Part shown: in pieces, positions 1-42,875 of the stretch
Numbering within the stretch: the stretch's first letter is position 1
How the letters are laid out: every line of letters begins with the position of its first letter
Virus record (IMG/VR): IMGVR_UViG_2740892441_000001
Length of the DNA stretch: 64,000 bases
Direction: 5' to 3' (one strand)
DNA from: a virus
Lineage: Duplodnaviria > Heunggongvirae > Uroviricota > Caudoviricetes
The notes under the pieces: model-generated
What the model saw: only the letters and a program-made list of their open reading frames with translations
What the model was told of the DNA's origin: nothing
Database searches by the model: none
Program-made: the position numbers and the translations under genes

Positions 1-2
1 TG

Positions 3-164
3 GACGCTGGCTATACTCAAGCCAACCAGTTGATCAATCTTTGCGAACGTCTCGGACTTGTTGAAAAAGTCAAAGGAGCTGGGAGCGCAAAAGCTGGTAC
101 TCAGCAATATCGCTTTATCAAGAATGATTTCTACAATTATCTAGCTGATGCTTTCAAAGCGTAA
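3..164 (+). CDS. hypothetical protein, 3-prime fragment (gene starts upstream of window)
   Basis: Open frame from window edge to TAA at 162-164 (53 codons, no start codon in window); followed by hairpin and RBS of next gene. Confidence 0.3.
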   Translation, partial: DAGYTQANQLINLCERLGLVEKVKGAGSAKAGTQQYRFIKNDFYNYLADAFKA

Positions 165-211
165 TTAATGGAATCAAGCGCCCACTATGGGCGCTTTAAA
201 GGAGCTTTAAA

Positions 212-415
212 ATGGTCAGCTATGACAAGATCCGCGCGGAATATCGCGCAAAGTATCGCGCTTACAAACTGGAATTAATCGATGATTTGATCGCGCAACG
301 CGACCAATTAAATTTTACGTTTTCTGATTTGCTTAACAGCAAGCGAGATTGCAAGCGCAAACGTGAATATTTACGTTTAAGCGCATTAATCGGAAAACTT
401 CAAAATTCTATTTAA
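212..415 (+). CDS. hypothetical small basic protein
   Basis: 67 aa ORF; AAGGAG-type RBS about 8 nt upstream of ATG; same RBS as next gene. Confidence 0.45.
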   Translation: MVSYDKIRAEYRAKYRAYKLELIDDLIAQRDQLNFTFSDLLNSKRDCKRKREYLRLSALIGKLQNSI

Positions 416-435
416 TTTTTTTAAGGAGCTTAATC

Positions 436-663
436 ATGTTTGTTCTTATCGCTGGCGTTAACGTCCACAATGAATATTGTGTTAATGATATTGCTGGGAT
501 CGCTGGTTACGCTGGATCTGTTGAGCTTATAGATGAAACGACGCGCAAAATTGACTTATTGAGCGACCAGGAGCGAAAAAAAGCAGACGTGAACGACGCT
601 GATATATTTTTAATGTTAAAAGCGTTTGTAGAAATGGGATTTGAAATCAGTTTACATAAATAA
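436..663 (+). CDS. hypothetical small protein
   Basis: 75 aa ORF; TAAGGAG RBS upstream; followed by intrinsic terminator hairpin. Confidence 0.5.
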   Translation: MFVLIAGVNVHNEYCVNDIAGIAGYAGSVELIDETTRKIDLLSDQERKKADVNDADIFLMLKAFVEMGFEISLHK

Positions 664-668
664 AATCG

Positions 669-692
669 AGCGCCCACTATGGGCGCTTTTTT
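669..692 (+). terminator. rho-independent terminator (GC hairpin AGCGCCCACTATGGGCGCT + T-run)
   Basis: Perfect inverted repeat followed by TTTTTT; same hairpin also at about 176-196. Confidence 0.6.
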
Positions 693-713
693 CGTTTCCA
701 ATACTCCCACCAT

Positions 714-739
714 AACGCGCCATCATTGGCGCGTTTTTT
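714..739 (+). terminator. rho-independent terminator (AACGCGCC..GGCGCGTT + T-run)
   Basis: Inverted repeat followed by TTTTTT. Confidence 0.55.
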
Positions 740-1144
740 ATTGTCTTTAACTCACTCCAACAACATAAAAATAAGCGCCAAAATAACGCCATAGACGCGA
801 TTTTATATCCTCGCCAGTACATACCCATTACTTAACACATTAACGCGCTTAAAACGCGTTATATTGCGCTATAGAGTATGGTTAATCGTTGGCTTTTAGT
901 CTTGCTTTATGATCCGCGTTTATTTGTCGGCGCGGATCGGCATTTTGTTTTGTTCCGTATCCGCTCGCGTATTATGTGCGCGTGATTTTTCACATAATCA
1001 CACCACTTAATCACGTATGTGATTATGCTACGAAAGAAATCTGGATGTCTCAGGCGACGAAAGTCATCATAATTTTCCCCGCTCACCTGTCCGACAACCG
1101 CTGGTTGGATTCAACCAGCTTCCCGATGTTTTTTCTATATAAAG

Positions 1145-1235
1145 GCGAATGCAGCCGTTTCCCGAAAAAATCCTGGCCGTTTCCCGTCGGCTCATGAATG
1201 CGTTCCTCGCCGTTTCTGAAAATTTCCCTGCGGCA
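1145..1235. repeat. three direct copies of GCCGTTTC(C)CGAA-like motif
   Basis: Motif recurs as a 6-copy array at about 4785-4910. Confidence 0.4.
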
Positions 1236-1279
1236 GCTGGTGGCTATAGAGAAAGGGCCGTTTCTGGCCCTCTTCTCAG

Positions 1280-1762
1280 TTACACGCCATCAAGGATGTG
1301 GATGCGGTTGCTTGCGTATACATTCAGCATAAAGTTAGCGCAAAACAGTTTCCATGTATCAACGCCAGCGGTATACGTAATGTTTTTGCATTTAATCGCA
1401 TTGTTGGCGATCCGCATCCCCTGCGATACTGCTTCATCGTCGGAAAATTTGAACGACGATTGAGTTTTAATCCAGACAGAAATCTGCGTAGCGAACTCAA
1501 TCAGCTTGGACTGGCAGAATCGCCCGGAGCGCACCGGAAAGACGAACGTTCCGAATCCAGAATTTACCACATACGCTTTCTCAAATACCCGCGAGTAACG
1601 ACGATTGCCAATGATGTCGCGTGCAATAATGCATTTTTCTTGTGCTGACAGTTCTACCGTCTCATTGTCGCGCCATGCACCAAGTACTCGTTTTTCAATG
1701 TCAGAGAACGTTACAGCGATATTGCCATGTGCGGGTGCGTTTACAGTAGCGATAAAATTCAT
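1280..1762 (-). CDS. hypothetical protein
   Basis: 160 aa ORF; AAGGAAA RBS before ATG; conserved promoter-like motif immediately upstream. Confidence 0.55.
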   Translation of the reverse strand: MNFIATVNAPAHGNIAVTFSDIEKRVLGAWRDNETVELSAQEKCIIARDIIGNRRYSRVFEKAYVVNSGFGTFVFPVRSGRFCQSKLIEFATQISVWIKTQSSFKFSDDEAVSQGMRIANNAIKCKNITYTAGVDTWKLFCANFMLNVYASNRIHILDGV

Positions 1763-1783
1763 GATTATTTCCTTATCGTAAAT

Positions 1784-1830
1784 AACAAATTGTTTTCTTG
1801 TTGGTGTTAATTATCGTTGTACGAATAAGG
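1784..1830 (-). promoter_or_regulatory. conserved early-promoter-like motif (minus-strand reading GATAAT-AACACCAA-AAGAAAACAATTTGTT)
   Basis: About 40 bp element recurring upstream of at least 10 minus-strand genes; contains GATAAT -10-like hexamer and AACAA.TTGTT palindrome. Confidence 0.35.
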
Positions 1831-1844
1831 CGTCAAAGTGGAAA

Positions 1845-1932
1845 GTTGCGGTAGCCGGACGGGAACAGGTGGGTTTTTCGGTTGCCTGGAGGTAAGAGGT
1901 TGGTGTTTTTAGCCTGCGGGAAACAGGATGGT
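1845..1932. repeat. about 80 bp repeat element (GGTAGCC..AGGTGGGT..TTTTCGGT..GCCTG..AAGAGGTTGGT..GTTTTT), second copy at 5505-5590
   Basis: Two copies alignable by eye; each looks like an internal tandem duplication of a ~30 bp unit. Confidence 0.4.
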
Positions 1933-1937
1933 CATTT

Positions 1938-1961
1938 AAGGCCACCAATGCTGGTGGCCTT
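1938..1961 (-). terminator. hairpin AAGGCCACC-AATGC-TGGTGGCCTT, putative terminator or processing site
   Basis: Same hairpin family at 2409-2432, 11238-11258 and 15421-15441, always between a gene end and the next promoter motif. Confidence 0.35.
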
Positions 1962-1966
1962 AGTCT

Positions 1967-2248
1967 TTAGTGGAGCAGACCGATGTCGATGGTATCCCCT
2001 GAATCCCCCACACGGATCATCAGCATGGCGAAGGCGTTTAGTGGATAACTGGCGTGCCATTCAGGGAAGCGGTCATCTCGCATGAAGTCGGCAATGTCGT
2101 AAACGCAGCCCTCAAAGTGGAAGAATCGCGTGCTTACCTGCTCGTCATATTCCACATGATCCATTTCTTGCTGTTCTGTTTCCGGCAAGTCCAGCCATGA
2201 TTCAAGGAATACATTTTGTGCTTTAGGGGTAATGGTGAAATCAGTCAT
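1967..2248 (-). CDS. hypothetical protein
   Basis: Start moved to internal ATG with GAGGA RBS; the longer track ORF would read through the promoter motif. Confidence 0.4.
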   Translation of the reverse strand: MTDFTITPKAQNVFLESWLDLPETEQQEMDHVEYDEQVSTRFFHFEGCVYDIADFMRDDRFPEWHASYPLNAFAMLMIRVGDSGDTIDIGLLH

Positions 2249-2267
2249 GAGCATATCCTCACTGCGT

Positions 2268-2325
2268 AAACATATTGTTTTCTTGTTGGTGTAATTATCG
2301 CAGTGTAGATAAGGCATAAAAGAAG
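2268..2325 (-). promoter_or_regulatory. conserved early-promoter-like motif
   Basis: AAACATATTGTTTTCTTGTTGGTGTAATTATCGCAG matches the recurring motif. Confidence 0.35.
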
Positions 2326-2583
2326 TTAATACAGGCTGAATACACAAGAAAGGTTCTGGAAGTTGATAGCCAGGTTTCAAACTAACCTTCGGTTATTAAA
2401 AGTCATTTAAGACCACCAATGCTGGTGGCCTTAATAATTATCGCCCGATTACGCTAAGGATCTTTTCCTCAACTGATTTGTTGTTGCGACTAAACTGCCT
2501 TGCGTATCTGATGACAGAAGAGGCGTTTTGCTTTCTGACCATCTCGGCTCTTTCCTTCAGGCGTTTCTTGAAATCGCCCATAT

Positions 2584-2976
2584 TTACCACCAGGCGCAGA
2601 ACGTCAGTCTGTTATTGTGAAAGTCGTAATTATTAATCAGCTCTTCTACAAGTGCTTTCAACTCCCCCACGTCACGCCAGTAATCTTCGTCATAATCCAT
2701 GCTGCCAAAGTAAAAACCTCCAGTCGGCTCGAACTCATCCTGAGTAGGCAGAAGGGCTTCGCAATTACTCTCGTTGAGACGAATCAGAGTAGCCTTTAGA
2801 GCGCAAAGATCATTCTTTGTAATTTCTAAAAATTTAAAACTATCAACTTTGCCTACGTTCCGATTCACCCACCCAACAAGCGCATTAAACTTATAAAAAT
2901 AGCCTACTTCCTTTCTGGCTGCTTCGTTATTCAGATCGTTTTTTGGCTGCGTCTCGATATAGATATCAAGTCCCAT
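2584..2976 (-). CDS. hypothetical protein
   Basis: 130 aa ORF with AAGGAAA RBS. Confidence 0.55.
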   Translation of the reverse strand: MGLDIYIETQPKNDLNNEAARKEVGYFYKFNALVGWVNRNVGKVDSFKFLEITKNDLCALKATLIRLNESNCEALLPTQDEFEPTGGFYFGSMDYDEDYWRDVGELKALVEELINNYDFHNNRLTFCAWW

Positions 2977-3100
2977 GATGGTTTCCTTATTAAGTATTAA
3001 GTTGCTTCAGTGAAAGCATTTTCACAAATCAGATAAGGCAGAAAACAAATTATTATCGGGCATAAGAAAATGGCGCGGTTTACGCGCCATTTAAAGAGGA

Positions 3101-3496
3101 TTAAGCGAATACGCTTTCAGGGATTAAGGTATCAGCAGGAATGCCGGATGTAATACGCAGACCGTACTGGCCAATCCAGGTGGTGCTGGTGTTCAGGCTG
3201 GAGGCGAATACGGAATTAACCATATTCATCATGGTTTCAAACACCTCTTCATCAACCTGGCGGAAGTAGTTCTCGATTTTCAGCAGCAGCGGGTCAGTTG
3301 CATCGAGAATGGACTGGTATTGAGTCGCGTACTCGCCGCCGGAGGCATCACCTTTACGCACGATCGTACTGGCCTGTACTTCGGCACCAGTTTCGGTGTT
3401 GTACGTAACAACGGTGATTTTTGCCACATTCTTACCTTCGGCGGTTTCAGAGGCATAGTAAACATCAACTGTCAGTTTTTCGCGTTTAACGGTCAT
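3101..3496 (-). CDS. hypothetical protein
   Basis: Start refined to internal ATG with GGAGAG RBS (131 aa). Confidence 0.5.
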   Translation of the reverse strand: MTVKREKLTVDVYYASETAEGKNVAKITVVTYNTETGAEVQASTIVRKGDASGGEYATQYQSILDATDPLLLKIENYFRQVDEEVFETMMNMVNSVFASSLNTSTTWIGQYGLRITSGIPADTLIPESVFA

Positions 3497-3539
3497 TTCA
3501 CTCTCCGTAGTGTATTGGTTATTTTTATATTCTATGATC

Positions 3540-3555
3540 GTAAGTATGTACTTAC
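3540..3555. promoter_or_regulatory. palindrome GTAAGTA-TG-TACTTAC (operator-like motif B)
   Basis: Member of dispersed ATAAGTA-N-TACTTAT palindrome family. Confidence 0.3.
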
Positions 3556-3560
3556 AAAAC

Positions 3561-3588
3561 AAAAAAGCCCCGTAAGGATGGCGGGGCT
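3561..3588 (-). terminator. rho-independent terminator (GCCCCG..CGGGGC with U-run on minus strand)
   Basis: GC hairpin adjacent to A-run on plus strand; lies just downstream of gene 3623-3934. Confidence 0.5.
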
Positions 3589-3622
3589 GTCGTACTGTCG
3601 ACTAATTACCACTTGCACATTA

Positions 3623-3934
3623 TCAGGCTATTGCCATCACTGATGCTCTCTGAATCTCTTGCTGGGCCACGCGGTTAACTTCCATCAAAGCCAGTTCGAG
3701 CTGATGTTCCGGCCACATTCTTTGAAACGCCATCCAGCCTTTTCCACGCTGGCGGCGAACATTCATTACATAACGAGTAAAGGTGTTTTTATCGAAAGAC
3801 ACCGCTGTTTCACGGAACAGACGAATAGAGGTTCCATTGGCAACGATGTCCAGCAAAGTTAATTGAGCAACCAGCGCAGGCTTCTCTTTTCTCTTCTGGT
3901 CTTTGTCCAGACCAAGAACCAATGATTTTTTCAT
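3623..3934 (-). CDS. hypothetical protein
   Basis: Start refined to ATG with GGAG RBS (103 aa); promoter motif upstream. Confidence 0.45.
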   Translation of the reverse strand: MKKSLVLGLDKDQKRKEKPALVAQLTLLDIVANGTSIRLFRETAVSFDKNTFTRYVMNVRRQRGKGWMAFQRMWPEHQLELALMEVNRVAQQEIQRASVMAIA

Positions 3935-3945
3935 CACAACTCCGT

Positions 3946-3986
3946 AAACAACTTGTTTTCTCAATGGCGTAAATAATACCAGTAAG
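3946..3986 (-). promoter_or_regulatory. conserved early-promoter-like motif
   Basis: AAACAACTTGTTTTCTCAATGGCGTAAATAATACC. Confidence 0.35.
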
Positions 3987-4087
3987 AAAACGGCTACAAA
4001 GCATATTGATCAGGTGCATGAGCGATATGCAGGTTCTTCCCTGCGGCTATAGAGAAATTAAGCCAGCAATGCTGGCTTTGGTTGGGG

Positions 4088-4417
4088 TTACTCGAATACT
4101 TCAAGAAACTCCTGAACGTCCCAATGCTGGACGAGGTGAAGATAGACCTTAGAAATCACGTCATTTTCGCTATCGCATGTGAAGTAGTACTTCTGGCTGC
4201 GGTTGTATGTGTCCACACAAAATTCGCTCATATCCATAAAGTCAGCATCTTCACCCATGTCGCAAATCATCAAAGCAGGTGCGTCATCACGAGTCATCAG
4301 CTCAAGCACCCACCGCGAATTGATCAGAGTGGAAGACCAACCTTCTAACTCATAAAACTGATCAAACTCTTTTTGAGTTAATTTCTTGATTTGGTTGATG
4401 TCGATATTTGCAAACAT
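4088..4417 (-). CDS. hypothetical acidic small protein
   Basis: 109 aa, D/E-rich; promoter motif upstream. Confidence 0.5.
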   Translation of the reverse strand: MFANIDINQIKKLTQKEFDQFYELEGWSSTLINSRWVLELMTRDDAPALMICDMGEDADFMDMSEFCVDTYNRSQKYYFTCDSENDVISKVYLHLVQHWDVQEFLEVFE

Positions 4418-4429
4418 AAATCAATCCTT

Positions 4430-4478
4430 AAACAACATGTTTTCTTATTGGTGTTATTATCGCAATAACGCATAGGCG
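4430..4478 (-). promoter_or_regulatory. conserved early-promoter-like motif
   Basis: AAACAACATGTTTTCTTATTGGTGTTATTATCGCAATAACG. Confidence 0.35.
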
Positions 4479-4784
4479 AAAAAGGATTTTATTCCGGTGA
4501 ATGTGGTTTTGGCAGTGAGTTTTCAGGTTCAGTACCGAGTACACTTTTTACATTATTCTGATTTAGTAGCCGAAGGTGGCTGGTGGGCAGAATAATCATC
4601 TCCCCGAAAACCTACTGAAATCGATTGTGACCCGCTGACTGTCTGGCACAATTACGCTGTAGTTGGGCATTCAGAGGGAATCCAGCGGTAAGTAAGTTCG
4701 CCTGCACGTGAGCGCCTCTCTTCTTCCCGCACATTACAGGTGGATAGCCGCAACTCTCCCTCTCGCTATACCGGTACGCCGCCG

Positions 4785-4910
4785 TTCCTGAACCGGCATC
4801 GAGCCTTTTCCCGAAATCCACACAGGCAACTCGACCGTTTCCCTGAAAACCTCCAGCCGTTCCCCGAAGGCAACCCAGCCGTTTCTGTAGCGGGATGCAG
4901 CCTTTTCCCT
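4785..4910. repeat. six tandem ~20 bp repeats (A)GCCGTTTCCC(T)GAA
   Basis: Direct repeats visible by eye; same motif at 1145-1235. Confidence 0.5.
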
Positions 4911-5089
4911 GTATGGACCGAAGGCTGACCGTAGGGGTGTTACGGGGGATAAAATCAGTAGTTGAATAAATACGAAAAAGGAGGCGACACCCCTCCTTCC
5001 CTCCCCACTTATACATACCTGGCTTCTTCGCTATGCATGTTGTGTTTTCTTCGTGTTTTATCTGTTTCAACCTCTCTATAGGCGTTAAT

Positions 5090-5500
5090 GCTCACTCCTT
5101 CCAGAACGTTCTATACGGCAACTATTTCTGTTGGTGAATTGGGTGTGTTGTTTTCTCTGTCGGTGTATGTGGTTTCGTTCGTTTTGCGGTGGTTCTTCTA
5201 TAGGGTGTTCTCGTCGTTTTGGTGATTGTTCTTCTCCGTCTATGGAGTAATGGCAGGTGGGCGATTCCTTTCGTTATTGTGTTTGAGTTGTTTGTCTGGA
5301 GTGCGTGAAGGGCTTTTGTAGTTATTCGTGTATTGGGTAATGGCGTTTCCCGTGATTGTTCTGTTTCGTGTCTTTTGGGATTGAAGAATCCTTGCGGTAA
5401 CAGGCTTCGTTGGGGTTTCAGTGATTCTGGTGTTTCTTCGCTGTTTGGGTAATGGCGTGTCGTGGGTATCGCGCGTATGAATGTTTTCGGATTGCCTGTG
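5090..5500. repeat. G+T-rich low-complexity tract (plus strand), ORF-free
   Basis: Extreme strand compositional skew; the only ORFs are low-complexity minus-strand artefacts. Confidence 0.45.
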
Positions 5501-5504
5501 AAAG

Positions 5505-5590
5505 TTAGGTTGGTTGTCCGGTAGCCTGGGAAGAAGAGGTGGGTCTTTTCGGTAGCCTGCCATAAAGAGGTTGGTTGTTTTTGGGAATGG
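5505..5590. repeat. second copy of the ~80 bp repeat element seen at 1845-1932
   Basis: Alignable by eye to 1845-1932. Confidence 0.4.
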
Positions 5591-5980
5591 CATATGCGTT
5601 ATTTAGTTGTTTTGTTATGCCTGAAAATAAGTTGTTTATATGGTTATGTAACGCAACGGGAACGATTTTGAGCGTGTGTTTTTGTTGGTAGTGTGTTGGG
5701 TCGTCTGTGGTGAAAATTGGACGCTGTGGCGCTGTCTGCTGCGTAGGATTGCGGGTATAAGAAGTAATGTGTGAAAACGTCAATTTTTTAGACCAAATCG
5801 GGTGAAAGCGTTGACGTTTCGTTGATCTGTTATTCAGTTGTTTTCTTGTTTGTATAAACAACTATAACCTATTGATATTTAAGGGTGTGATTGCAGGTAT
5901 GGAAGGGGAGTAGTGGCGATCAACGGATTCTTATAGAAAAGAATCAAATTGTGACCGCCATTATCAATAAGTTGCAACCG

Positions 5981-6550
5981 TTAGTTGTTCAGATAAACAT
6001 TTGGAACACGGACGTAGAAGTTCCTGTCACCGGTAAGTTCCAGAGTAATGTTAATGTCATTACCATTGTCTAGTGTAGCCGTTGCTCTATAGAACTTATC
6101 CGTCACCTTGTCCTCTATTGTCACCTTCATACATTTTGGTGCAGTCGAACCGTTATTCTCTTTCAGAATAGTTGTCACGAGAGGGCAGGCTGCTTCTTCA
6201 AGAGCAACCTCGTCCTTGTGTGGGATGCCGATGAAGATAATCCAAGCCAGCGACGCAACGATTATGATAAATGGCACTCTGCTGCCTTTTGTAATAGTCG
6301 CGCGCTTCCAGAGATAGACAGGCAGGAGGAATACCCCCCATAGAATTGAAGGTGGTTCACAGCCAGACTCCGATAGAGCCATTCTGTCAGCTACTAACAA
6401 ACCGATGGTAGTTACACCCCCAATTATAATAGCGTAATTGGTATACTCTTCCGGCAATACTCCAAAGAAGAAAGGCATGAACGCTAGAATCCACGCATAA
6501 ATGTTATTCAGAGGTTTTGTTTGTTGGTTCTGGGTTTCCATCACATCCAT
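5981..6550 (-). CDS. hypothetical membrane protein (several hydrophobic segments)
   Basis: 189 aa with multiple hydrophobic stretches. Confidence 0.5.
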   Translation of the reverse strand: MDVMETQNQQTKPLNNIYAWILAFMPFFFGVLPEEYTNYAIIIGGVTTIGLLVADRMALSESGCEPPSILWGVFLLPVYLWKRATITKGSRVPFIIIVASLAWIIFIGIPHKDEVALEEAACPLVTTILKENNGSTAPKCMKVTIEDKVTDKFYRATATLDNGNDINITLELTGDRNFYVRVPNVYLNN

Positions 6551-6702
6551 TCCATCACATAAAAATCGCTTTTATATATTATCAATTTTCTCACTTGTAT
6601 AACCTAAATACGCATCCGTTTATCAATCCACCTTCCACAAACATCAGCTTTGGCTATGAAAAATGACAATCTCAAAGTGAAACCATTATCATAGGATAAC
6701 GA

Positions 6703-6888
6703 TTAGATGAGATGGTCTAATTCATCATCTATCATCGCTTTAACACTTGAGTCATTAACCCCGTATTGATTTATGAGCCGTTTCAGCTCCGGTGAAAACT
6801 GAAGGTAGATATCGTGGGCGTTTTTCACTGTAGGTTCAACGCCACGCATTTCAAGCGCCTTTAGTAGATATGAGTCTTCTTTAAGCAT
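6703..6888 (-). CDS. hypothetical small protein
   Basis: 61 aa ORF in operon context. Confidence 0.35.
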   Translation of the reverse strand: MLKEDSYLLKALEMRGVEPTVKNAHDIYLQFSPELKRLINQYGVNDSSVKAMIDDELDHLI

Positions 6889-6924
6889 AAATTCTCCGTT
6901 ATCTAGTATGAAGCGATTGCCGGA

Positions 6925-7233
6925 TTACCATTGCCAGCACTCAAGCCCTTCAACGACCGGTGCGCCACAATCAAAATGTACAGAGTCAAAGCCTACATCA
7001 AGTACTTTCTGAATGTTCGCAATCGCGCCCTCGGATATACCATATCGACGCAACTCATCTTTCCAGTCATCGTCCTGTAACCCGGCGTGGACAATGCAAC
7101 CGTACTCAATTTGTGAAACCCAATCCAGCTCATTGCTTGCGATCATGAATCGGCGAGCATCTTCCTCTGATGTATGAGATGAGCTGATCAATGCCACCTG
7201 GTAGGCTTGGGTAATGTTCAACATTTCAACCAC
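6925..7233 (-). CDS. hypothetical protein
   Basis: 102 aa ORF; promoter motif pair immediately upstream. Confidence 0.5.
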   Translation of the reverse strand: MVEMLNITQAYQVALISSSHTSEEDARRFMIASNELDWVSQIEYGCIVHAGLQDDDWKDELRRYGISEGAIANIQKVLDVGFDSVHFDCGAPVVEGLECWQW

Positions 7234-7238
7234 TCCGA

Positions 7239-7303
7239 AACAATTTGTTTTCTTATGTGGCTTATTATCTCAATCAACAAAAGGCAGAAAACAAATTGTT
7301 TTA
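7239..7303 (-). promoter_or_regulatory. two adjacent copies of the conserved promoter-like motif; the hairpin that usually follows is missing where host-like DNA begins
   Basis: AAACAATTTGTTTTCTTATGTGG...AAAAGGCAGAAAACAAATTGTTTT. Confidence 0.35.
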
Positions 7304-7337
7304 GGGTTTGTTAAAGTCAGAAGGGATTGTGTCTATA

Positions 7338-7372
7338 TGAAAATGCCCAGCGTATTGCCGGGCATTGTGAAG
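7338..7372 (-). terminator. metG terminator hairpin (AATGCCC..GGGCATT + U-run on minus strand)
   Basis: GC stem followed by TTTT on the metG sense strand just after the stop codon. Confidence 0.5.
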
Positions 7373-7385
7373 AATGGTTGCTTAA

Positions 7386-9419
7386 TTACTTAACCTGGTG
7401 GCCAGGTTTAGCACCAGCATCCGGGCTTAACAGGAAGATGTCTTTCCCGCCGGGGCCAGCAGCCATCACCATGCCTTCGGAGATACCGAAACGCATTTTA
7501 CGCGGAGCCAGGTTAGCCACCATAATGGTGTGACGGCCAATCAGTGCCTGTGGGTCTGGATAAGCGGAACGGATGCCTGAGAAGACATTGCGTTTTTCAC
7601 CGCCGAGATCCAGCGTCAGGCGCAGCAGTTTGTCAGAACCTTCAACAAAGTCTGCGTTTTCGATCAGCGCCACGCGCAGGTCAACTTTGGCAAAGTCGTC
7701 AAAGGTGATGGTTTCCTGAATCGGGTCGTCTGCCAGCGGGCCAGTAACTGGCGCGGCAGTAGCTTTCACTTCTTCTTTAGACGCTTCCACCAATGCTTCC
7801 ACCTGTTTCATGTCGATACGGTTATACAGTGCTTTGAACGGATTCACTTTATGGCCCAGCAGCGGTTGCTGGATACCATCCCAGGTCAGTTCTGTATTCA
7901 GGAATGCTTCTGCACGTTCAGTCAGTTTCGGCAGTACCGGCTTCAGGTACGTCATCAGCACGCGGAACAGGTTAATGCCCATAGAGCAAATCGCCTGCAG
8001 ATCGGCATCGCGTCCTTCCTGCTTCGCCACCACCCACGGAGCCTGTTCATCGACATAGCGGTTAGCCAGGTCAGCCAATGCCATGATTTCACGGATAGCT
8101 TTACCAAATTCGCGGCTTTCCCATGCTTCGCCAATCACTTCAGCGGCATCAGTAAAGGTTTTGTACAGTTGCGAGTCAGCCAGTTCGCTTGCCAGCACGC
8201 CGTCAAAACGCTTGTTGATAAAGCCTGCATTACGGGAGGCCAGGTTAACCACTTTGTTCACGATATCGGCATTCACGCGCTGAACGAAATCCTCCAGGTT
8301 GAGATCGATATCATCAATGCGCGAAGAGAGTTTCGCAGTGTAGTAGTAACGCAGGCTGTCGGCGTCAAAATGATTCATCCAGGTGCTGGCTTTAATAAAG
8401 GTGCCGCGAGACTTGGACATCTTCGCGCCGTTCACCGTCACATAGCCGTGAACAAACAGGTTGGTCGGCTTGCGGAAGTTGCTGCCTTCCAGCATGGCAG
8501 GCCAGAACAGGCTGTGGAAGTAAACGATATCTTTACCGATGAAGTGGTACAGCTCGGCGGTGGAGTCTTTCTTCCAGTATTCATCGAAGCTGGTAGTGTC
8601 GCCGCGCTTGTCGCACAGATTCTTGAAGGAACCCATGTAGCCAATCGGTGCGTCCAGCCAGACGTAGAAATATTTACCCGGCGCGTTCGGAATTTCAAAA
8701 CCGAAGTAAGGTGCGTCGCGGGAGATATCCCACTGTTGCAGACCAGATTCAAACCACTCCTGCATTTTGTTTGCCACCTGCTCCTGCAACGCACCGCTGC
8801 GGGTCCATGCCTGCAACATTTCGCTGAAAGAGGGCAGATCAAAGAAGAAGTGTTCAGAATCACGCATTACCGGCGTAGCGCCAGAAACTACCGATTTCGG
8901 CTCAATCAGTTCAGTCGGGCTGTAGGTCGCGCCGCAAACTTCACAGTTATCGCCGTATTGATCTGGCGCTTTACATTTCGGACAGGTGCCTTTCACAAAA
9001 CGATCCGGCAGGAACATGCCTTTTTCCGGGTCGTACAACTGAGAGATAGTGCGGTTTTTAATAAAACCGTTCTCTTTCAGGCGAGTATAGATAAGCTCAG
9101 ACAGCTGGCGGTTCTCTTCGCTGTGCGTCGAGTGATAGTTGTCATAGCTGATGTTAAAGCCTGCGAAATCAGTCTGGTGTTCCTGGCTCATTTCGCCAAT
9201 CATCTGTTCCGGTGTGATACCAAGCTGCTGTGCTTTCAGCATGATCGGCGTACCGTGGGCATCGTCGGCGCAGATGAAGTTGACCTCGTGGCCGCGCATT
9301 CGCTGGTAACGGACCCAGACATCAGCCTGGATGTGCTCCAGCATATGGCCGAGGTGGATTGAGCCGTTAGCGTACGGCAGCGCGCACGTCACCAGAATTT
9401 TCTTCGCGACTTGGGTCAT
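7386..9419 (-). CDS. metG: methionyl-tRNA synthetase
   Basis: 677 aa translation matches E. coli MetG along its length as recalled from memory ([31 protein letters not shown]...KPGHQVK); start set at the MTQVAKK ATG, upstream extension of the track ORF judged spurious. Confidence 0.95.
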
Positions 9420-9576
9420 AGTAGGCATTACTTCTTTGTAGTGAAAAGGGGCTTGATAGTAACAAAATGGCCTTATGTCTGCCATGTGATAACAGCATTT
9501 CTCATAAATGATTAAATGTCGTAGCTGGAGTACACTACAAGGCGACAATTGCGCAAATTAAAATAAAGGAGACGGG

Positions 9577-10677
9577 ATGAGCGAGTCCAAATCGCCGGAT
9601 GCCCTGAGAGCAATGGTAGCCGGTACGCTGGCTAATTTTCAGCACCCAACCCTGAAGCACAACCTGACTACGCTTAAAGCGTTACACCATGTTGCGTTGA
9701 TGGATGACACACTGCATGTCGAACTAATCATGCCTTTCGTGTGGAATAAGCCTTTTGAAGACCTGAAAGAGCAATGTAGTGGTGATCTGCTCCGTATCAC
9801 TGGCGCAAAGGCTATCGACTGGAAGCTGTCGTACAACATTGCCACGCTTAAGCGCGTCAAAAACCAACCAGGCATTAATGGCGTTAAGAACATCATCGCC
9901 GTCAGCTCAGGCAAGGGCGGTGTAGGCAAATCGTCCACAGCAGTAAACTTGGCACTGGCGTTGGCTGCTGAAGGTGCGAAAGTTGGTATTTTGGATGCCG
10001 ATATCTACGGTCCATCAATTCCAACCATGCTGGGTGCGGAAAACCAACGTCCAACCTCACCGGACGGTACTCACATGGCACCTATCATGTCTCATGGCCT
10101 GGCAACCAACTCTATTGGTTATCTGGTCACCGACGACAATGCAATGGTGTGGCGTGGACCGATGGCCAGCAAGGCGTTAATGCAGATGTTGCAGGAAACT
10201 CTATGGCCTGATCTGGACTATCTCGTTCTCGATATGCCGCCGGGCACTGGTGATATTCAATTGACGCTGGCGCAGAACATTCCTGTAACTGGTGCTGTTG
10301 TGGTAACTACGCCGCAAGATATCGCGCTGATCGATGCGAAGAAAGGCATTGTGATGTTCGAAAAAGTCGAAGTGCCGGTACTGGGTATCGTCGAAAACAT
10401 GAGTGTGCATATTTGCAGTAACTGCGGTCATCACGAGCCAATTTTTGGCACCGGTGGCGCACAGAAGCTGGCCGAGAAATACAACACGCAGTTGTTAGGC
10501 CAAATGCCACTTCATATCTCTCTTCGTGAAGATCTGGATAACGGAACACCAACCGTTATTAGTCGTCCAGATAGCGAATTTACGGCTATTTATCGTGACC
10601 TCGCAGATCGCGTTGCTGCCCAAATGTATTGGCAAGGTGAAGTAATACCTGGCGAAATCGCATTCCGCGCAGTGTGA
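9577..10677 (+). CDS. apbC: Fe-S cluster carrier ATPase ApbC/Mrp
   Basis: 366 aa; strong match to enterobacterial Mrp/ApbC (P-loop SSGKGGVGKS, CSNCGHHEP motif); divergent from metG as in enterobacterial chromosomes. Confidence 0.93.
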   Translation: MSESKSPDALRAMVAGTLANFQHPTLKHNLTTLKALHHVALMDDTLHVELIMPFVWNKPFEDLKEQCSGDLLRITGAKAIDWKLSYNIATLKRVKNQPGINGVKNIIAVSSGKGGVGKSSTAVNLALALAAEGAKVGILDADIYGPSIPTMLGAENQRPTSPDGTHMAPIMSHGLATNSIGYLVTDDNAMVWRGPMASKALMQMLQETLWPDLDYLVLDMPPGTGDIQLTLAQNIPVTGAVVVTTPQDIALIDAKKGIVMFEKVEVPVLGIVENMSVHICSNCGHHEPIFGTGGAQKLAEKYNTQLLGQMPLHISLREDLDNGTPTVISRPDSEFTAIYRDLADRVAAQMYWQGEVIPGEIAFRAV

Positions 10678-10680
10678 TAA

Positions 10681-10704
10681 AAAGGTGGTGCAATGCACCA
10701 CCTA
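10681..10704 (-). terminator. hairpin GGTGGTGCA-ATG-CACCACC with U-run on minus strand (terminator for humD-like gene)
   Basis: Stem-loop followed by TTTTTT on minus strand; T-run overlaps the apbC stop, marking the right junction of the host-like block. Confidence 0.45.
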
Positions 10705-10714
10705 AACAGTTCTC

Positions 10715-11104
10715 CTACATCACAGGACAATCATCAAACTCGCCACTTCTTGCGTCGTTGATAATGTGAGTGATCACACCAAACACGGCATTGCTGCCCG
10801 TGCATCCATCATCATCCTTTGGCAATGCTTCCTTCTTACCAGTTCTTAAATCCTCCAGATGCTGACGTGGATACTTCCGGTATCTTTTTACGCGATATTC
10901 CCCATCCAGAGCACATACAAGAAGAGATCCATCAACAGGAGTGAGTGAGGAATCGACCACCAGCAATGCACCCTGCAATATTCCCTCACGATGATGACTA
11001 TCAGCCGCCCTCATGAAGTAGGTCGCTGAAGGATGTCTAATTATCTGCTGATCAAGAGAAATACGGCTCTCTGCATAATCCGCCGCAGGAGATGGGAAGC
11101 CCAT
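10715..11104 (-). CDS. humD: UmuD'-like S24-family protein lacking the cleavable N-terminal arm (HumD-like)
   Basis: Starts M-GFPSPAADY, aligned to Gly25 of E. coli UmuD (the RecA-mediated cleavage point); in-frame stop 5 codons upstream excludes an N-terminal arm; Ser and Lys of the S24 dyad retained; LexA box upstream. Confidence 0.7.
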   Translation of the reverse strand: MGFPSPAADYAESRISLDQQIIRHPSATYFMRAADSHHREGILQGALLVVDSSLTPVDGSLLVCALDGEYRVKRYRKYPRQHLEDLRTGKKEALPKDDDGCTGSNAVFGVITHIINDARSGEFDDCPVM

Positions 11105-11122
11105 AGCGTTTTCACCTCAAAA

Positions 11123-11142
11123 TACTGTTTATATATACAGTA
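11123..11142. promoter_or_regulatory. LexA (SOS) box TACTGTTTATATATACAGTA
   Basis: Near-perfect CTGT-N8-ACAG palindrome about 20-40 nt upstream of the humD-like start. Confidence 0.65.
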
Positions 11143-11208
11143 TACATGAAAGAAACCCACTTAGTGCAACCGATCGAGACTCTTCACCAAACAAAAATAT
11201 TTTTCTCA

Positions 11209-11258
11209 AATAAGAAAAGGCAGAAAACAAATTGTTTAAGGCCACTAGTTGTGGCCTT
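11209..11258 (-). promoter_or_regulatory. promoter-like motif plus hairpin (AAAAGGCAGAAAACAAATTGTTT + AAGGCCAC..GTGGCCTT)
   Basis: Same composite element as at 15399-15441. Confidence 0.35.
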
Positions 11259-11274
11259 AATGGGGGAGGGGTGC

Positions 11275-11799
11275 TTATTGGCTATGGCTAAAAATCAAAT
11301 GAGACACTTCATGTGGTTGTAGCTCGTCAAGATCCGGGGCCACAAAACCTTTTCCGAAAGACTTCACAAGTGATTCACCAGCCGCATCATTGTCACCTAT
11401 TACGCGAAAGTCATACGGCAGCATTGCCAGTTGACGACGTAATCCTGCTGAGAAAGTCGAACCTAACAGCGCCCACGAATTTCCGCCCGCGTTGTGCACT
11501 GCTGCACTTTTAAAAATCGACTCAGTTATCCATATCGGTCCATCTTTTAAAGGAAGATAGGTTCCCCATAGTAGCTGTCTGCCGTGCGCTCGTGTGAAAT
11601 ACCGGGCCATCTTCGGATTGCTATGCTGCTTAGGAGCGCCTGGTCTGTATGTCTGATACCCGGCCAACATCCCATCAAACCTGTATAGAGGGAACGTAAC
11701 AACTCCTTCGCTTTCATCGATCCACTGTCTATATGGATGCACATCATGGCGGTAGTTGCGAGTTAGCAAATGAGCTTCCAGCTTTCCAAATTTGGTCAT
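11275..11799 (-). CDS. Toprim-like domain protein (tentative)
   Basis: Start refined to ATG with GAGGGA RBS; conserved Glu and VIGDNDAAGE (DxD) motif resembling Toprim. Confidence 0.4.
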   Translation of the reverse strand: MTKFGKLEAHLLTRNYRHDVHPYRQWIDESEGVVTFPLYRFDGMLAGYQTYRPGAPKQHSNPKMARYFTRAHGRQLLWGTYLPLKDGPIWITESIFKSAAVHNAGGNSWALLGSTFSAGLRRQLAMLPYDFRVIGDNDAAGESLVKSFGKGFVAPDLDELQPHEVSHLIFSHSQ

Positions 11800-11812
11800 A
11801 ACTTCGCATCCC

Positions 11813-12667
11813 TCATAACACTTCCCATTTATCACCATATTTCTCCATAGCTCTTAGCCAGTAAACATGGCCACTAGGCATAGTGATGTGAGGCTCGCCA
11901 AACTCTTCTCCATGCACATCAAAGATGTCCCCAACAGAGAATTGGGGGATTTCTACGCCGTTTTCACCTATATGCGTAATTCGTATACGTTTCGGTTGAA
12001 ATTGTCCACCTTTGAGCGAGTTGTTCACTGCTCTGGCAATTTTCTCCCGCAATTGCTGCGTTACGTGGTACTGAACCGCAATATCCCGCAACTCGTTCAC
12101 CAGTTCTCTAATCTGGTGATCTTTAAGCTCATTATTTGGGTGATGGGCAACAACTCTGGTTAATTCACCCTTGTCTTTTGCTCTTACGTATGCAGCTCTT
12201 GTGCATTCGACCCATGTATTACCGCCTACATTAACTTCGTAGATTAGGCTGGACTTATCTGTCAATTCGGAACAAATACGGGCCGTGGTCTGGCAACTAG
12301 AGCATTCGCAGTTATCGCGGAAACCGTGGTCTACTGGCTGCGGTTTCACATCATCAACTTTTTCTACCCTATTGGAATTTAAATACTTCGAAGCCTTGCT
12401 ATGCCAATCGCTGGTTTTAGGATCTTGTCCATCCATCAAACGCCAGGCTTCAGCGATTAACTCATAACTAGTGACTGTAGCTTCCTGCGCATCACCAATA
12501 AGTCGTGTAATCTCTCTTTCAAGCCGACCGCCTAGCTCTGTTTTAGTGCAATGTTCTGACCAATCGCCAGCCTCAAGCAGCGCGAGAATGCTTAAAATAT
12601 CGTCCAATAGAACGGTAGTATTATCGACTTCCTTCTGAAACTCACCGGCTACTGATTTATGCATCAT
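11813..12667 (-). CDS. hypothetical protein with Cys cluster
   Basis: 284 aa ORF; CECSSC motif; operon with flanking genes. Confidence 0.5.
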   Translation of the reverse strand: MMHKSVAGEFQKEVDNTTVLLDDILSILALLEAGDWSEHCTKTELGGRLEREITRLIGDAQEATVTSYELIAEAWRLMDGQDPKTSDWHSKASKYLNSNRVEKVDDVKPQPVDHGFRDNCECSSCQTTARICSELTDKSSLIYEVNVGGNTWVECTRAAYVRAKDKGELTRVVAHHPNNELKDHQIRELVNELRDIAVQYHVTQQLREKIARAVNNSLKGGQFQPKRIRITHIGENGVEIPQFSVGDIFDVHGEEFGEPHITMPSGHVYWLRAMEKYGDKWEVL

Positions 12668-40792: not shown

Positions 40793-40900
40793 CATCCACT
40801 ATGGAGAGCAAAGAAACCTCTGTAGAGAGCTGAATAACCGCTATGAAGAGTAAAACAACCACTCTGGAGAGCTGTATATATCCACTGTAGAGAGTAGAGC
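40793..40900. repeat. iteron array 1 (about five ~21 bp direct repeats, ACCACT.T.GAGAG-type)
   Basis: Direct repeats at regular ~21 bp spacing. Confidence 0.5.
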
Positions 40901-41006
40901 ACATTGTCTTTTATGGATAACTTAATGACTTAATTCTTCATTAACATACTGATATACATAGATATATTTTAAACTCTACTCTTAGTCATGATTCTTATGT
41001 CCTTAA

Positions 41007-41015
41007 ATATCCACA
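41007..41015. promoter_or_regulatory. DnaA-box-like ATATCCACA
   Basis: 8/9 match to TTATCCACA. Confidence 0.4.
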
Positions 41016-41053
41016 GAAGAGTAGAGTTACCTGTTCTTGAAATCCTCTGATTT

Positions 41054-41062
41054 TTATCCACA
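41054..41062. promoter_or_regulatory. DnaA box TTATCCACA
   Basis: 9/9 match to consensus. Confidence 0.5.
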
Positions 41063-41171
41063 GGCCCGATCCAGTAATTCAGATCACAAAGAGAACCAAA
41101 GAGACCCATAAAGACCCAATAAGATCCCCGCCCACCTCAAACCGTTGTGCCATCTGCCTTCAGACATGATC

Positions 41172-41300
41172 GATATCCACTATAGAGAGCGAATAATCCA
41201 CTATAGGGAGCAAAGCAACCACTATAGAGAGGAGAAAAACCACTATAGACGGTAGGATAACCGCTGTGATGAGTGCTACTATCCACTGTAATCAGCAAAG
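41172..41300. repeat. iteron array 2 upstream of repA (six ~21 bp direct repeats ATCCACTATAGAGAG-type)
   Basis: Regular direct repeats ending about 35 bp before the repA start. Confidence 0.6.
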
Positions 41301-41336
41301 GCCACCAAAGCCGTCGAATAACAAGAGACATTTGGA

Positions 41337-42392
41337 ATGAGCGAAAACGGCAATAAAAACATAGCGATCGTTGAAGCATTTTCAGAAACAGATAAAAAGA
41401 CAGGCGAAGTTGTTACGTTGGTTCCTAACACTAATAACACTGTTCAGCCTGTTGCTTTGATGCGTCTGGGCCTCTTCGTTCCGACGCTGAAATCGACATC
41501 CAGAGGAAGAAAGGGGCAAATGGTCTCTATGGATGCCTCTGCTGAACTCAAACAGCTGTCTCTGGCAAAAGCCGAAGGGTACGAAGACATAAGGATCTCT
41601 GGCCTTCGGCTTGATATGGATAACGACTTTAAAACGTGGGTGGGAATAATCCACGCGTTTGCCAAACACAAGGTCGTTGGCGATACTGTCACGTTGCCGT
41701 TCGTTGAGTTTGTAAGGCTGTGTGGCATTCCGACCGCCAGGTCATCAGCGAAGTTACGCAAACGCCTGGACAGTTCGCTAAGCCGTATTGCCACAAATAC
41801 CATCTCGTTCCGTAGCAAAGGCTCTGATGAGTTTTACGTAACGCATCTTGTGCAAACGGCAAAATATAGTGTCAAGCACGATACGGTCGAACTGAAAGCA
41901 GATCCCAAGATTTTCGAACTCTACCAGTTCGACAAAAAGGTTCTTCTGCAACTCCGGGCTATAAACGAACTCTCAAGAAAAGAATCCGCTCAGGCGCTTT
42001 ATACTTTTATTGAAAGTTTGCCGCCTGATCCGGCACCAATATCACTAGCCCGTTTACGCGCCAGACTTAATCTGACAAGTCGCACTATTACTCAGAATGC
42101 GACGGTAAGAAAGGCTATGGAACAGCTGCGAGAGATAGGATATCTCGATTACACGGAAGTTAAGCGCGGAAACTCGGTCTACTTCGTCATCCACTATAGG
42201 CGGCCAAAGTTACGCCAGGCACAAATATCAACAAAAATCGATAATGATGAGACGGAATATAGCCTCCCAGATGAGAATCAAGATGACATTATCGACGTTG
42301 TGCCTGACGAAAAAGAAGGCAAAATGGTCATGTTGAGTAAAGAAGAACTGGCGCTTCTCGAAGAGTTGCGCAAGGCAAAGACTCGCAAATAG
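41337..42392 (+). CDS. repA: plasmid replication initiator RepA (P1/P7-type, iteron-binding)
   Basis: [16 protein letters not shown] and [19 protein letters not shown] resemble P1 RepA as recalled; flanked by iteron arrays. Confidence 0.8.
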
Positions 42393-42404
42393 CCCAACCA
42401 CTGT

Positions 42405-42875
42405 AGTTAGTAGTAAGGCTCACTATCCACTGTAGTGAGCCTTACTTATATCTGTAATTCGCTATCCACTATAGTGAGTATCGTTATCTGTTGATAACCA
42501 CTGTAGGCAGTAGAATGCAAATACTGAATCAAATGTTAGTGATCACTAACACTGATGAAACAAGGGCTGCGAGGTTAGTGGTCACTGGGTATCTTGGAAA
42601 ATTTACTGTCTATAGTGGTTGTTGTCGCCCTCATCTTTGAGCGTATCCACTGTGGCGAGTGGATATCCACTGAAAACAGCAAAGGCTTACTCACCATAGT
42701 GGATACCCGCTGGACATCTCACTCCAATACTCACCATAGTGGTTGTTTGATGCGAATGAAAGGCTGTCTACTCGCTACAGTGGTTAGCAGATATGTAGGA
42801 AGAGAGGACTGCAGACCACAGTGGATAATGAGCTGATACGAATGCGGTGAGCTGGCTACTCACCGCAGTGGTTGG
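42405..42875. repeat. iteron array 3 downstream of repA (about 12 copies of CCACT(A/G)TAG in both orientations)
   Basis: Same core as the upstream iterons; resembles P1 incA-type copy-control arrays. Confidence 0.6.

Follow-up and report, generated by a model that had tools for sequence, protein, structure and literature searches.

The window, by which we mean the whole 64,000-nt stretch of viral DNA analysed here, carries two arrays of one short direct repeat. The two clusters are real and far beyond chance, they are the only two such arrays on the replicon, they are conserved among relatives, and they are placed beside terminator-like hairpins. From their organisation we infer that the arrays act as DNA, that is, as clusters of double-stranded binding sites, that a nearby 216-aa protein may be the binder, and that their role would belong to the lytic cycle. 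This is a tentative reading, which we regard as quite possible but still short of probable.

Two arrays of one motif

All nine copies of the repeat are on the plus strand, arranged as follows.

1154-1235, plus strand: array 1, three units at 1154 (GCCGTTTCCCGAA), 1176 (GCCGTTTCCCGTC) and 1209 (GCCGTTTCTGAAA), spaced 22 and 33 bp
1224-1235, plus strand: conserved TTTCCCTGCGGC closing array 1
4781-4921, plus strand: array 2, six units at 4781, 4803, 4834, 4856, 4878 and 4900, spaced 22, 31, 22, 22 and 22 bp

A preliminary description of this DNA had claimed one motif at two loci, in three and six copies, and the arrays are present as described. When a weight matrix was run over the window and over the whole of the 112-kb relative NZ_CP047004.1, all nine scores of at least 14.9 bits fell inside the two arrays, and no site elsewhere exceeded 13.6 bits. 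The core given in that description, GCCGTT(T/C)CC(C/T)GAA, had to be shortened: as a 13-mer that includes GAA it fits three copies (3 found versus 0.19 expected), whereas (G/A)CC(G/T)TT(T/C)C(C/T) is common to all of them. The spacing, put there at about 20 bp, measured 22 bp. The related pattern SCCKTTYCY matched the window 17 times versus 6.2 expected, a count reached by none of 100 shuffles, and the frequency of the motif thus clearly exceeds random expectation. Eight of these 17 matches are array copies and one more is a copy in a hairpin at 1257; the array copy at 4834, which starts with A, is missed by this pattern.

Conservation and surroundings of the arrays

Over its first 7.4 kb, the window is 95-96% identical to about 250 E. 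coli plasmids of 100-125 kb and also matches phages Cyrano, CMS-2020a and PhiR41_1 and, in part, SSU5. On these matches, the window is assigned to an SSU5/pHCM2-like phage-plasmid, and we used the annotation of the complete 112-kb relative NZ_CP047004.1 as our map. The RepFIB repA gene lies at 41337-42392 of the window. Phage-plasmids of the SSU5/pHCM2/pMT1-like family are frequent in clinical Enterobacteriaceae and have resistance genes aboard, and almost nothing is known of their cis-acting sites besides the RepFIB replicon. No other conserved non-coding signal of this family is as distinctive as the arrays, which would also make a handy marker specific to it.

Matches to the array regions came from 766-841 plasmids of Escherichia, Klebsiella, Enterobacter, Salmonella, Citrobacter and Cronobacter, many of them at 60-80% identity. 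The syntenic position of both arrays is unchanged in eight annotated relatives and in about 70 IMG/VR contigs, with Yersinia pMT1 as the exception: pMT1-type plasmids matched the array 1 region only, the region of array 2 drew no match from any Yersinia record, and at the Y. pestis pMT1 locus that we examined array 1 is kept and array 2 is absent. Among non-redundant relatives, the identity of the core columns is 98% in array 1 and 88% in array 2, compared with 72% and 65% for the respective spacers and 67-70% for the flanks, and the motif is kept at both syntenic places though the flanking proteins fall to 23-62% identity. Array 1 in particular keeps its place in all relatives, among them lineages whose neighbouring proteins are at 31-62% identity. 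Array 2 varies between three and six units in relatives, and its insertions and deletions are whole units (22 bp in L017, 44 bp in L080). A period of 22 bp is dominant, accounting for 168 of the 247 spacings in relatives; distant lineages show spacings of 10, 12, 24-28, 32-36 and 49 bp with no fixed helical phase, and some units of lineage L121 are just 10-12 bp apart. The 22-bp period is therefore a feature of lineage and not a requirement, and strict helical phasing as a requirement is ruled out by the same spacings.

Array 1 sits at a junction where a plus-strand operon converges with a long series of minus-strand genes. The order of the operon is SF2 helicase, small proteins, FljA-like protein, 216-aa protein and two small ORFs. 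Array 2 lies inside a stretch of about 1.5 kb that is without annotation in most records. The features around the arrays are these.

1695-2219 of locus L001, about 0.8-1.3 kb left of the window start: FljA-family gene
3-164, plus strand: last 53 codons of the gene for the 216-aa protein, covering a putative winged-helix recognition helix and wing (from the translation); the rest is left of the window
669-982, plus strand: terminator-like hairpins at 669-693, 714-735, 910-939 and 966-982, between the end of the plus-strand operon and array 1 (terminator scan)
1250-1275, minus strand: hairpin after the stop codon of the gene at 1280-1762, with a degenerate fourth motif copy, GCCGTTTCT (1257), in its loop (folding and alignment)
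1280-4417, minus strand: six small genes between the arrays, mostly behind one common promoter-like element
4962-4974, unstranded: 13-mer TTGAATAAATACG within the AT-rich block that adjoins array 2 (alignments)
4975-5001, minus strand: terminator-like hairpin immediately ahead of array 2, at the end of a C/A-rich untranslated stretch of about 870 nt (terminator scan)
1781-1797, 2266-2282, 3041-3057, 3944-3960, 4428-4444, 7236-7303, 11223, 19946, 20675, 31665, 44415 and 59914: sites of the near-palindrome AAACAANTTGTTTTC

To the left of array 1, three strong plus-strand terminator-like hairpins occupy the equivalent place in lineage L118. The hairpin at 1250-1275 reads as a terminator in the Salmonella and Klebsiella lineages, and in the window its T run is inside the stem. 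Judged from the alignment, the motif copy that it carries is probably incidental, because the hairpin of lineage L118 is without the motif. Pairing in the 4975-5001 hairpin is kept in relatives via G-T pairs that, as read from the alignment, can form on the minus strand only. Since terminator-like hairpins surround array 1 on both strands and precede array 2, little transcript of either strand is expected there. The 13-mer at 4962-4974 recurs in distant lineages with minor changes (TTGAATAAATACG in L103, TTGAATTTCTACG in L118). In a search for promoters, the closest downstream promoter-like site was about 270 bp from array 2, and there was none for array 1. All six inter-array proteins fell into PHROG families of unknown function.

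The stretch at 5002-5870 (about 870 nt) has no annotation in most records, and its two strands are extremely asymmetric in composition. Its plus strand is G/T-rich (GC skew at most +0.48, AT skew at least -0.55) and its minus strand C/A-rich, and it is bounded by a promoter-like element at about 5838-5900 and by the minus-strand terminator-like hairpin at 5001-4975. Conservation across genera amounts to 67-70%, and the ORF called here in phage Cyrano is at background in the lysogen. The appearance is that of a long non-coding RNA without structure, which might serve Rho, Hfq or an Hfq-like protein as a substrate or decoy. Against an expectation of 0.67, the near-palindrome AAACAANTTGTTTTC is present 14 times, typically with a recurring promoter-like element (TTGnnn-15 nt-GATAAT) on one side and the start codon of a small minus-strand gene on the other. 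A relative has the same element upstream of its ParA-like gene, and its probable role is that of an operator or leader common to early genes. Another repeat family, TAGCCTGCGGGAAACAGGATGGTCATTT, has a period of 30 nt, with three copies at 1852-1937 and two at 5522-5580, and the 450-bp piece containing the latter two is also present in large Klebsiella IncFIB/HI1B plasmids, beside DUF262 and type I restriction-modification genes.

Among the genes, a host-like metG (methionyl-tRNA synthetase, 7386-9548) is aboard the phage-plasmid together with an adjacent apbC, and metG directly adjoins the small-gene cluster. The FljA-like gene in LF82/Cyrano is up about 16-fold in macrophages. A minus-strand ORF of 61 aa at 6703-6888 has a weak Pfam match to the T7 gp5.9 RecBCD inhibitor (E = 0.005, below the cut-off). 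Four Chi sites (GCTGGTGG), at 1236, 1950, 2421 and 4579, are all on the plus strand and within 3.4 kb, two of them inside terminator-like hairpins, and the window as a whole has 15 versus 1.55 expected. That density is about that of the E. coli chromosome. We considered the Chi cluster as a clue to a DNA end and rejected it, given that a plasmid of 96% identity does not keep its orientation and that the overall density is chromosome-like.

Candidate readers of the arrays

The preliminary description went on to suggest that the arrays are protein-binding sites, for partition, replication or transcription factors. The idea of binding sites is the part that is best supported, and the versions that invoke RepA iterons or an adjacent par operon fail. 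We favour binding at the level of DNA because the units have one orientation, their cores are conserved while their spacers drift, units are gained and lost whole, no convincing RNA structure emerged, and terminator-like hairpins flank the arrays. The units of lineage L121 that are only 10-12 bp apart suit side-by-side binding on DNA. As to RNA, the RNAalifold consensus was weak on both strands, and folding z-scores were about 0, except for -2.1 for one long minus-strand helix in array 2 that is not kept in relatives. Minus-strand units showed no folding excess over spacer-shuffled controls, and several of the repeat units are unable to form a hairpin on any account. With no consistent per-unit hairpin, conserved RNA structure was rejected, as was a known RNA family, for which the Rfam 15 search of positions 1-12000 gave a single chance-level match, located elsewhere. 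A CsrA/Rsm sponge was likewise discarded, as the most informative positions are CC.TT.C on the plus strand, corresponding to AA and GG(C) on the minus strand and not to GGA, and units 1209 and 4878 are without GGA. Single plus-strand units fold at -4.8 versus -3.9 kcal/mol for spacer-shuffled controls, and this excess of 0.9 kcal/mol is a small hint of single-strand structure, against a pure double-stranded reading.

On the favoured reading, the arrays would be cis-acting clusters of double-stranded sites for a sequence-specific protein of the phage-plasmid, with each unit offering one asymmetric core, CC(G/T)TT(T/C)CC, and with adjacent units allowing cooperative loading. The most likely binder would be the candidate 216-aa protein. 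Its gene shares one plus-strand block with the SF2 DNA helicase, ends 990 bp left of array 1, and lies to the left of that array, at a distance of 0.6-0.9 kb, in all the lineages with arrays that were checked. The protein is 81-86% identical across genera, with residues 167-181 invariant, and its gene is the best conserved nearby (median identity 86% versus 75% for a 160-aa neighbour); in distant lineages identity is only 31-52%. The model has an N-terminal helical hairpin followed by a C-terminal helix-strand-helix-helix-strand-strand arrangement. Foldseek matches are weak and none is significant, but nearly all are to winged-helix proteins (Orc1/Cdc6, MukE, PadR, RTP), and the invariant stretch, residues 167-181 with the strands that follow, coincides with the predicted recognition helix and wing, within a winged-helix part modelled at low confidence (pLDDT 40-60). 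Against this choice of binder, the co-occurrence of the protein with the arrays is plain conserved synteny, with no independent counter-example, and the motif is invariant while the protein drops to 31% identity, which a conserved host factor would explain equally well.

The most likely role would be a DNA transaction in the phage cycle. The gene for the 216-aa protein (CYRAN_113) is at background in the lysogen, which fits a lytic-cycle role better than a role in partition. The version that we favour is a second, lytic-cycle origin, or an origin enhancer, of the adjacent helicase operon, apart from the RepFIB replicon. If the arrays mark such an origin, or another control site, they would offer a handle on the switch between plasmid and phage life. 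The AT-rich sequence that adjoins both arrays suits this reading, but its blocks are short, and DnaA boxes, of which there are none near the arrays, weigh against it. Scans of 0-7 kb found DnaA boxes only as one-mismatch matches in unrelated places, and with neither a DnaA nor an IHF consensus site in or beside the arrays, involvement of these two host proteins was rejected. The arrays do have the direct-repeat trait of Rep-type iterons, being tandem, in one orientation and with a conserved core. The iterons of RepA itself, however, are ATCCACTATAGAGAG with a 21-bp period and flank repA at 40794-42660; the arrays are unrelated to them in sequence and lie about 36 kb from repA, and were therefore rejected as RepFIB RepA iterons.

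Another way to view the arrays is at the level of the transcript, where the repeats (G(G/A)AA(C/A)GGC on the minus strand) would act as a multi-site operator or decoy for the FljA-like protein, an account that we consider unlikely. The gene, 1.5-3.5 kb left of the arrays, encodes a full-length FljA homologue (Pfam Flag1_repress PF03614, E = 4e-80), is found beside array 1 wherever the flank suffices, and is expressed in the lysogen. The model of the protein (pLDDT 85) predicts two tandem Sm/Hfq-like domains (helix plus five strands), and the structures that match it best in the PDB are all Hfq. Repressors of the FljA type work post-transcriptionally, on fliC mRNA (PMC2652032). Phage-plasmids from non-flagellated Klebsiella and Y. 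pestis also retain the gene, so that something other than fliC must be its target there. An exact 12-nt sequence, TGAGCCGACGGG, is common to unit 2 of array 1 (1181-1192, minus strand) and the fliC leader of E. coli K-12 (L109, 4650-4661). We rejected the array as a mimic of that leader: the 12-nt identity is real, but the motif matrix finds no site in the K-12 leader (best score 0.9 bits), and the part in common is mostly spacer and specific to the E. coli clade of phage-plasmids. The transcript-level account is further weakened by the terminator-like hairpins, behind which the arrays lie on both strands, by the ORF called over array 2, which is near background in the lysogen where the FljA-like gene is expressed, and by the lack of excess folding in minus-strand units; the A/C-rich common leaders of the small genes would be an equally plausible target for an Hfq-like protein. 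A broader proposal is that the FljA family (proteins P0001-P0082) consists of tandem-Hfq-fold RNA binders native to SSU5-like phage-plasmids, with the arrays as their own multi-site RNA targets or decoys and the Salmonella phase-variation repressor FljA as a domesticated copy of a regulator that had this repeat for its first partner, and this strikes us as distinctly improbable. A wider scan for FljA homologues in the genome collection found only six loci, all of the same family. The predicted tandem Hfq-like fold of these FljA-type "transcriptional regulators", and their retention in non-flagellated hosts, are relevant to flagellar phase variation.

Two further explanations keep the arrays as DNA sites but change their reader. 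The arrays could be dispersed centromere or maintenance sites, for a type Ib ParA-like ATPase and its 117-aa partner or for two proteins with ParB-N domains, which we hold to be very doubtful. In favour, centromeres of type Ib and type II typically consist of direct-repeat arrays, a search beside the ParA-like operon found no repeat array there, leaving that operon with no assigned centromere, and dispersed centromere sites exist in the phage-plasmid N15. Array 1 also persists in pMT1, an element that lives on solely as a plasmid, but pMT1 has lost array 2 and uses P1-type parABS. The ParA-like gene and its partner are outside the window, about 38 kb from the arrays in the complete relative. 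The near-palindrome in the promoter region of the ParA-like gene is an equally good candidate for a centromere or operator, and small ribbon-helix-helix partners usually read repeats of 4-7 bp. The arrays could instead serve a conserved host factor, for example by forming a polar barrier that stops transcription or replication where the two strands' units converge, or serve packaging, as pac repeats for the small terminase subunit; we judge this quite unlikely. The invariance of the motif across lineages whose phage proteins are at 23-31% identity fits a conserved host reader. Also in favour of this account, the units all point one way just downstream of minus-strand terminators, array 1 is exactly where plus- and minus-strand transcription units converge, and in other phages the small subunit of the terminase binds clusters of short repeats. 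We know of no host-factor consensus that the motif matches, however, the DnaA-box and IHF scans speak against this account too, and a distance of 9-13 kb separates the arrays from the terminase genes, whereas pac is usually in or beside terS. A literature search for data on the virion DNA ends found none.

Comparison with known systems

Our literature searches found no description of these repeats, of SSU5 packaging or of a lytic origin, and the arrays look to have gone undescribed in the literature searched. For the lytic origin proposed on the favoured reading, the analogues are P1, with oriR versus oriL, the ori and crr of phage P4, whose type I iterons are bound by the alpha protein, and the oriL and oriR of SPP1, whose boxes are bound by G38P. 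Like the arrays, the P4 and SPP1 sites present a short asymmetric word in two non-coding clusters a few kilobases apart, near a replication operon that contains a helicase. The arrays differ in that the candidate binder is a small coiled-coil and putative winged-helix protein, not a primase-helicase, and in that their motif is unrelated.

The Rep iterons of RepFIB and P1 type (incC/incA) share with the arrays direct repeats, a period of 21-22 bp, two arrays and one orientation. The arrays, unlike these iterons, flank six small genes and not a rep gene, and have no DnaA boxes nearby. Type Ib and type II centromeres (pB171 parC1/parC2, R1 parC, the pSM19035 omega heptads) resemble them in having separate direct-repeat loci of variable copy number; the arrays, however, are not beside a par operon, and their unit is longer, with a core of 9-12 nt in a 22-nt unit. 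The FljA-fliC leader system of Salmonella phase variation is alike in that a FljA-family gene adjoins the arrays and one unit contains 12 nt of the E. coli fliC leader, but the repeat motif is absent from the leader, the arrays are behind terminator-like hairpins, and the family persists in non-flagellated hosts. Taken as a whole, the arrays look like members of the familiar class of iteron-like repeat arrays, involving no new principle.
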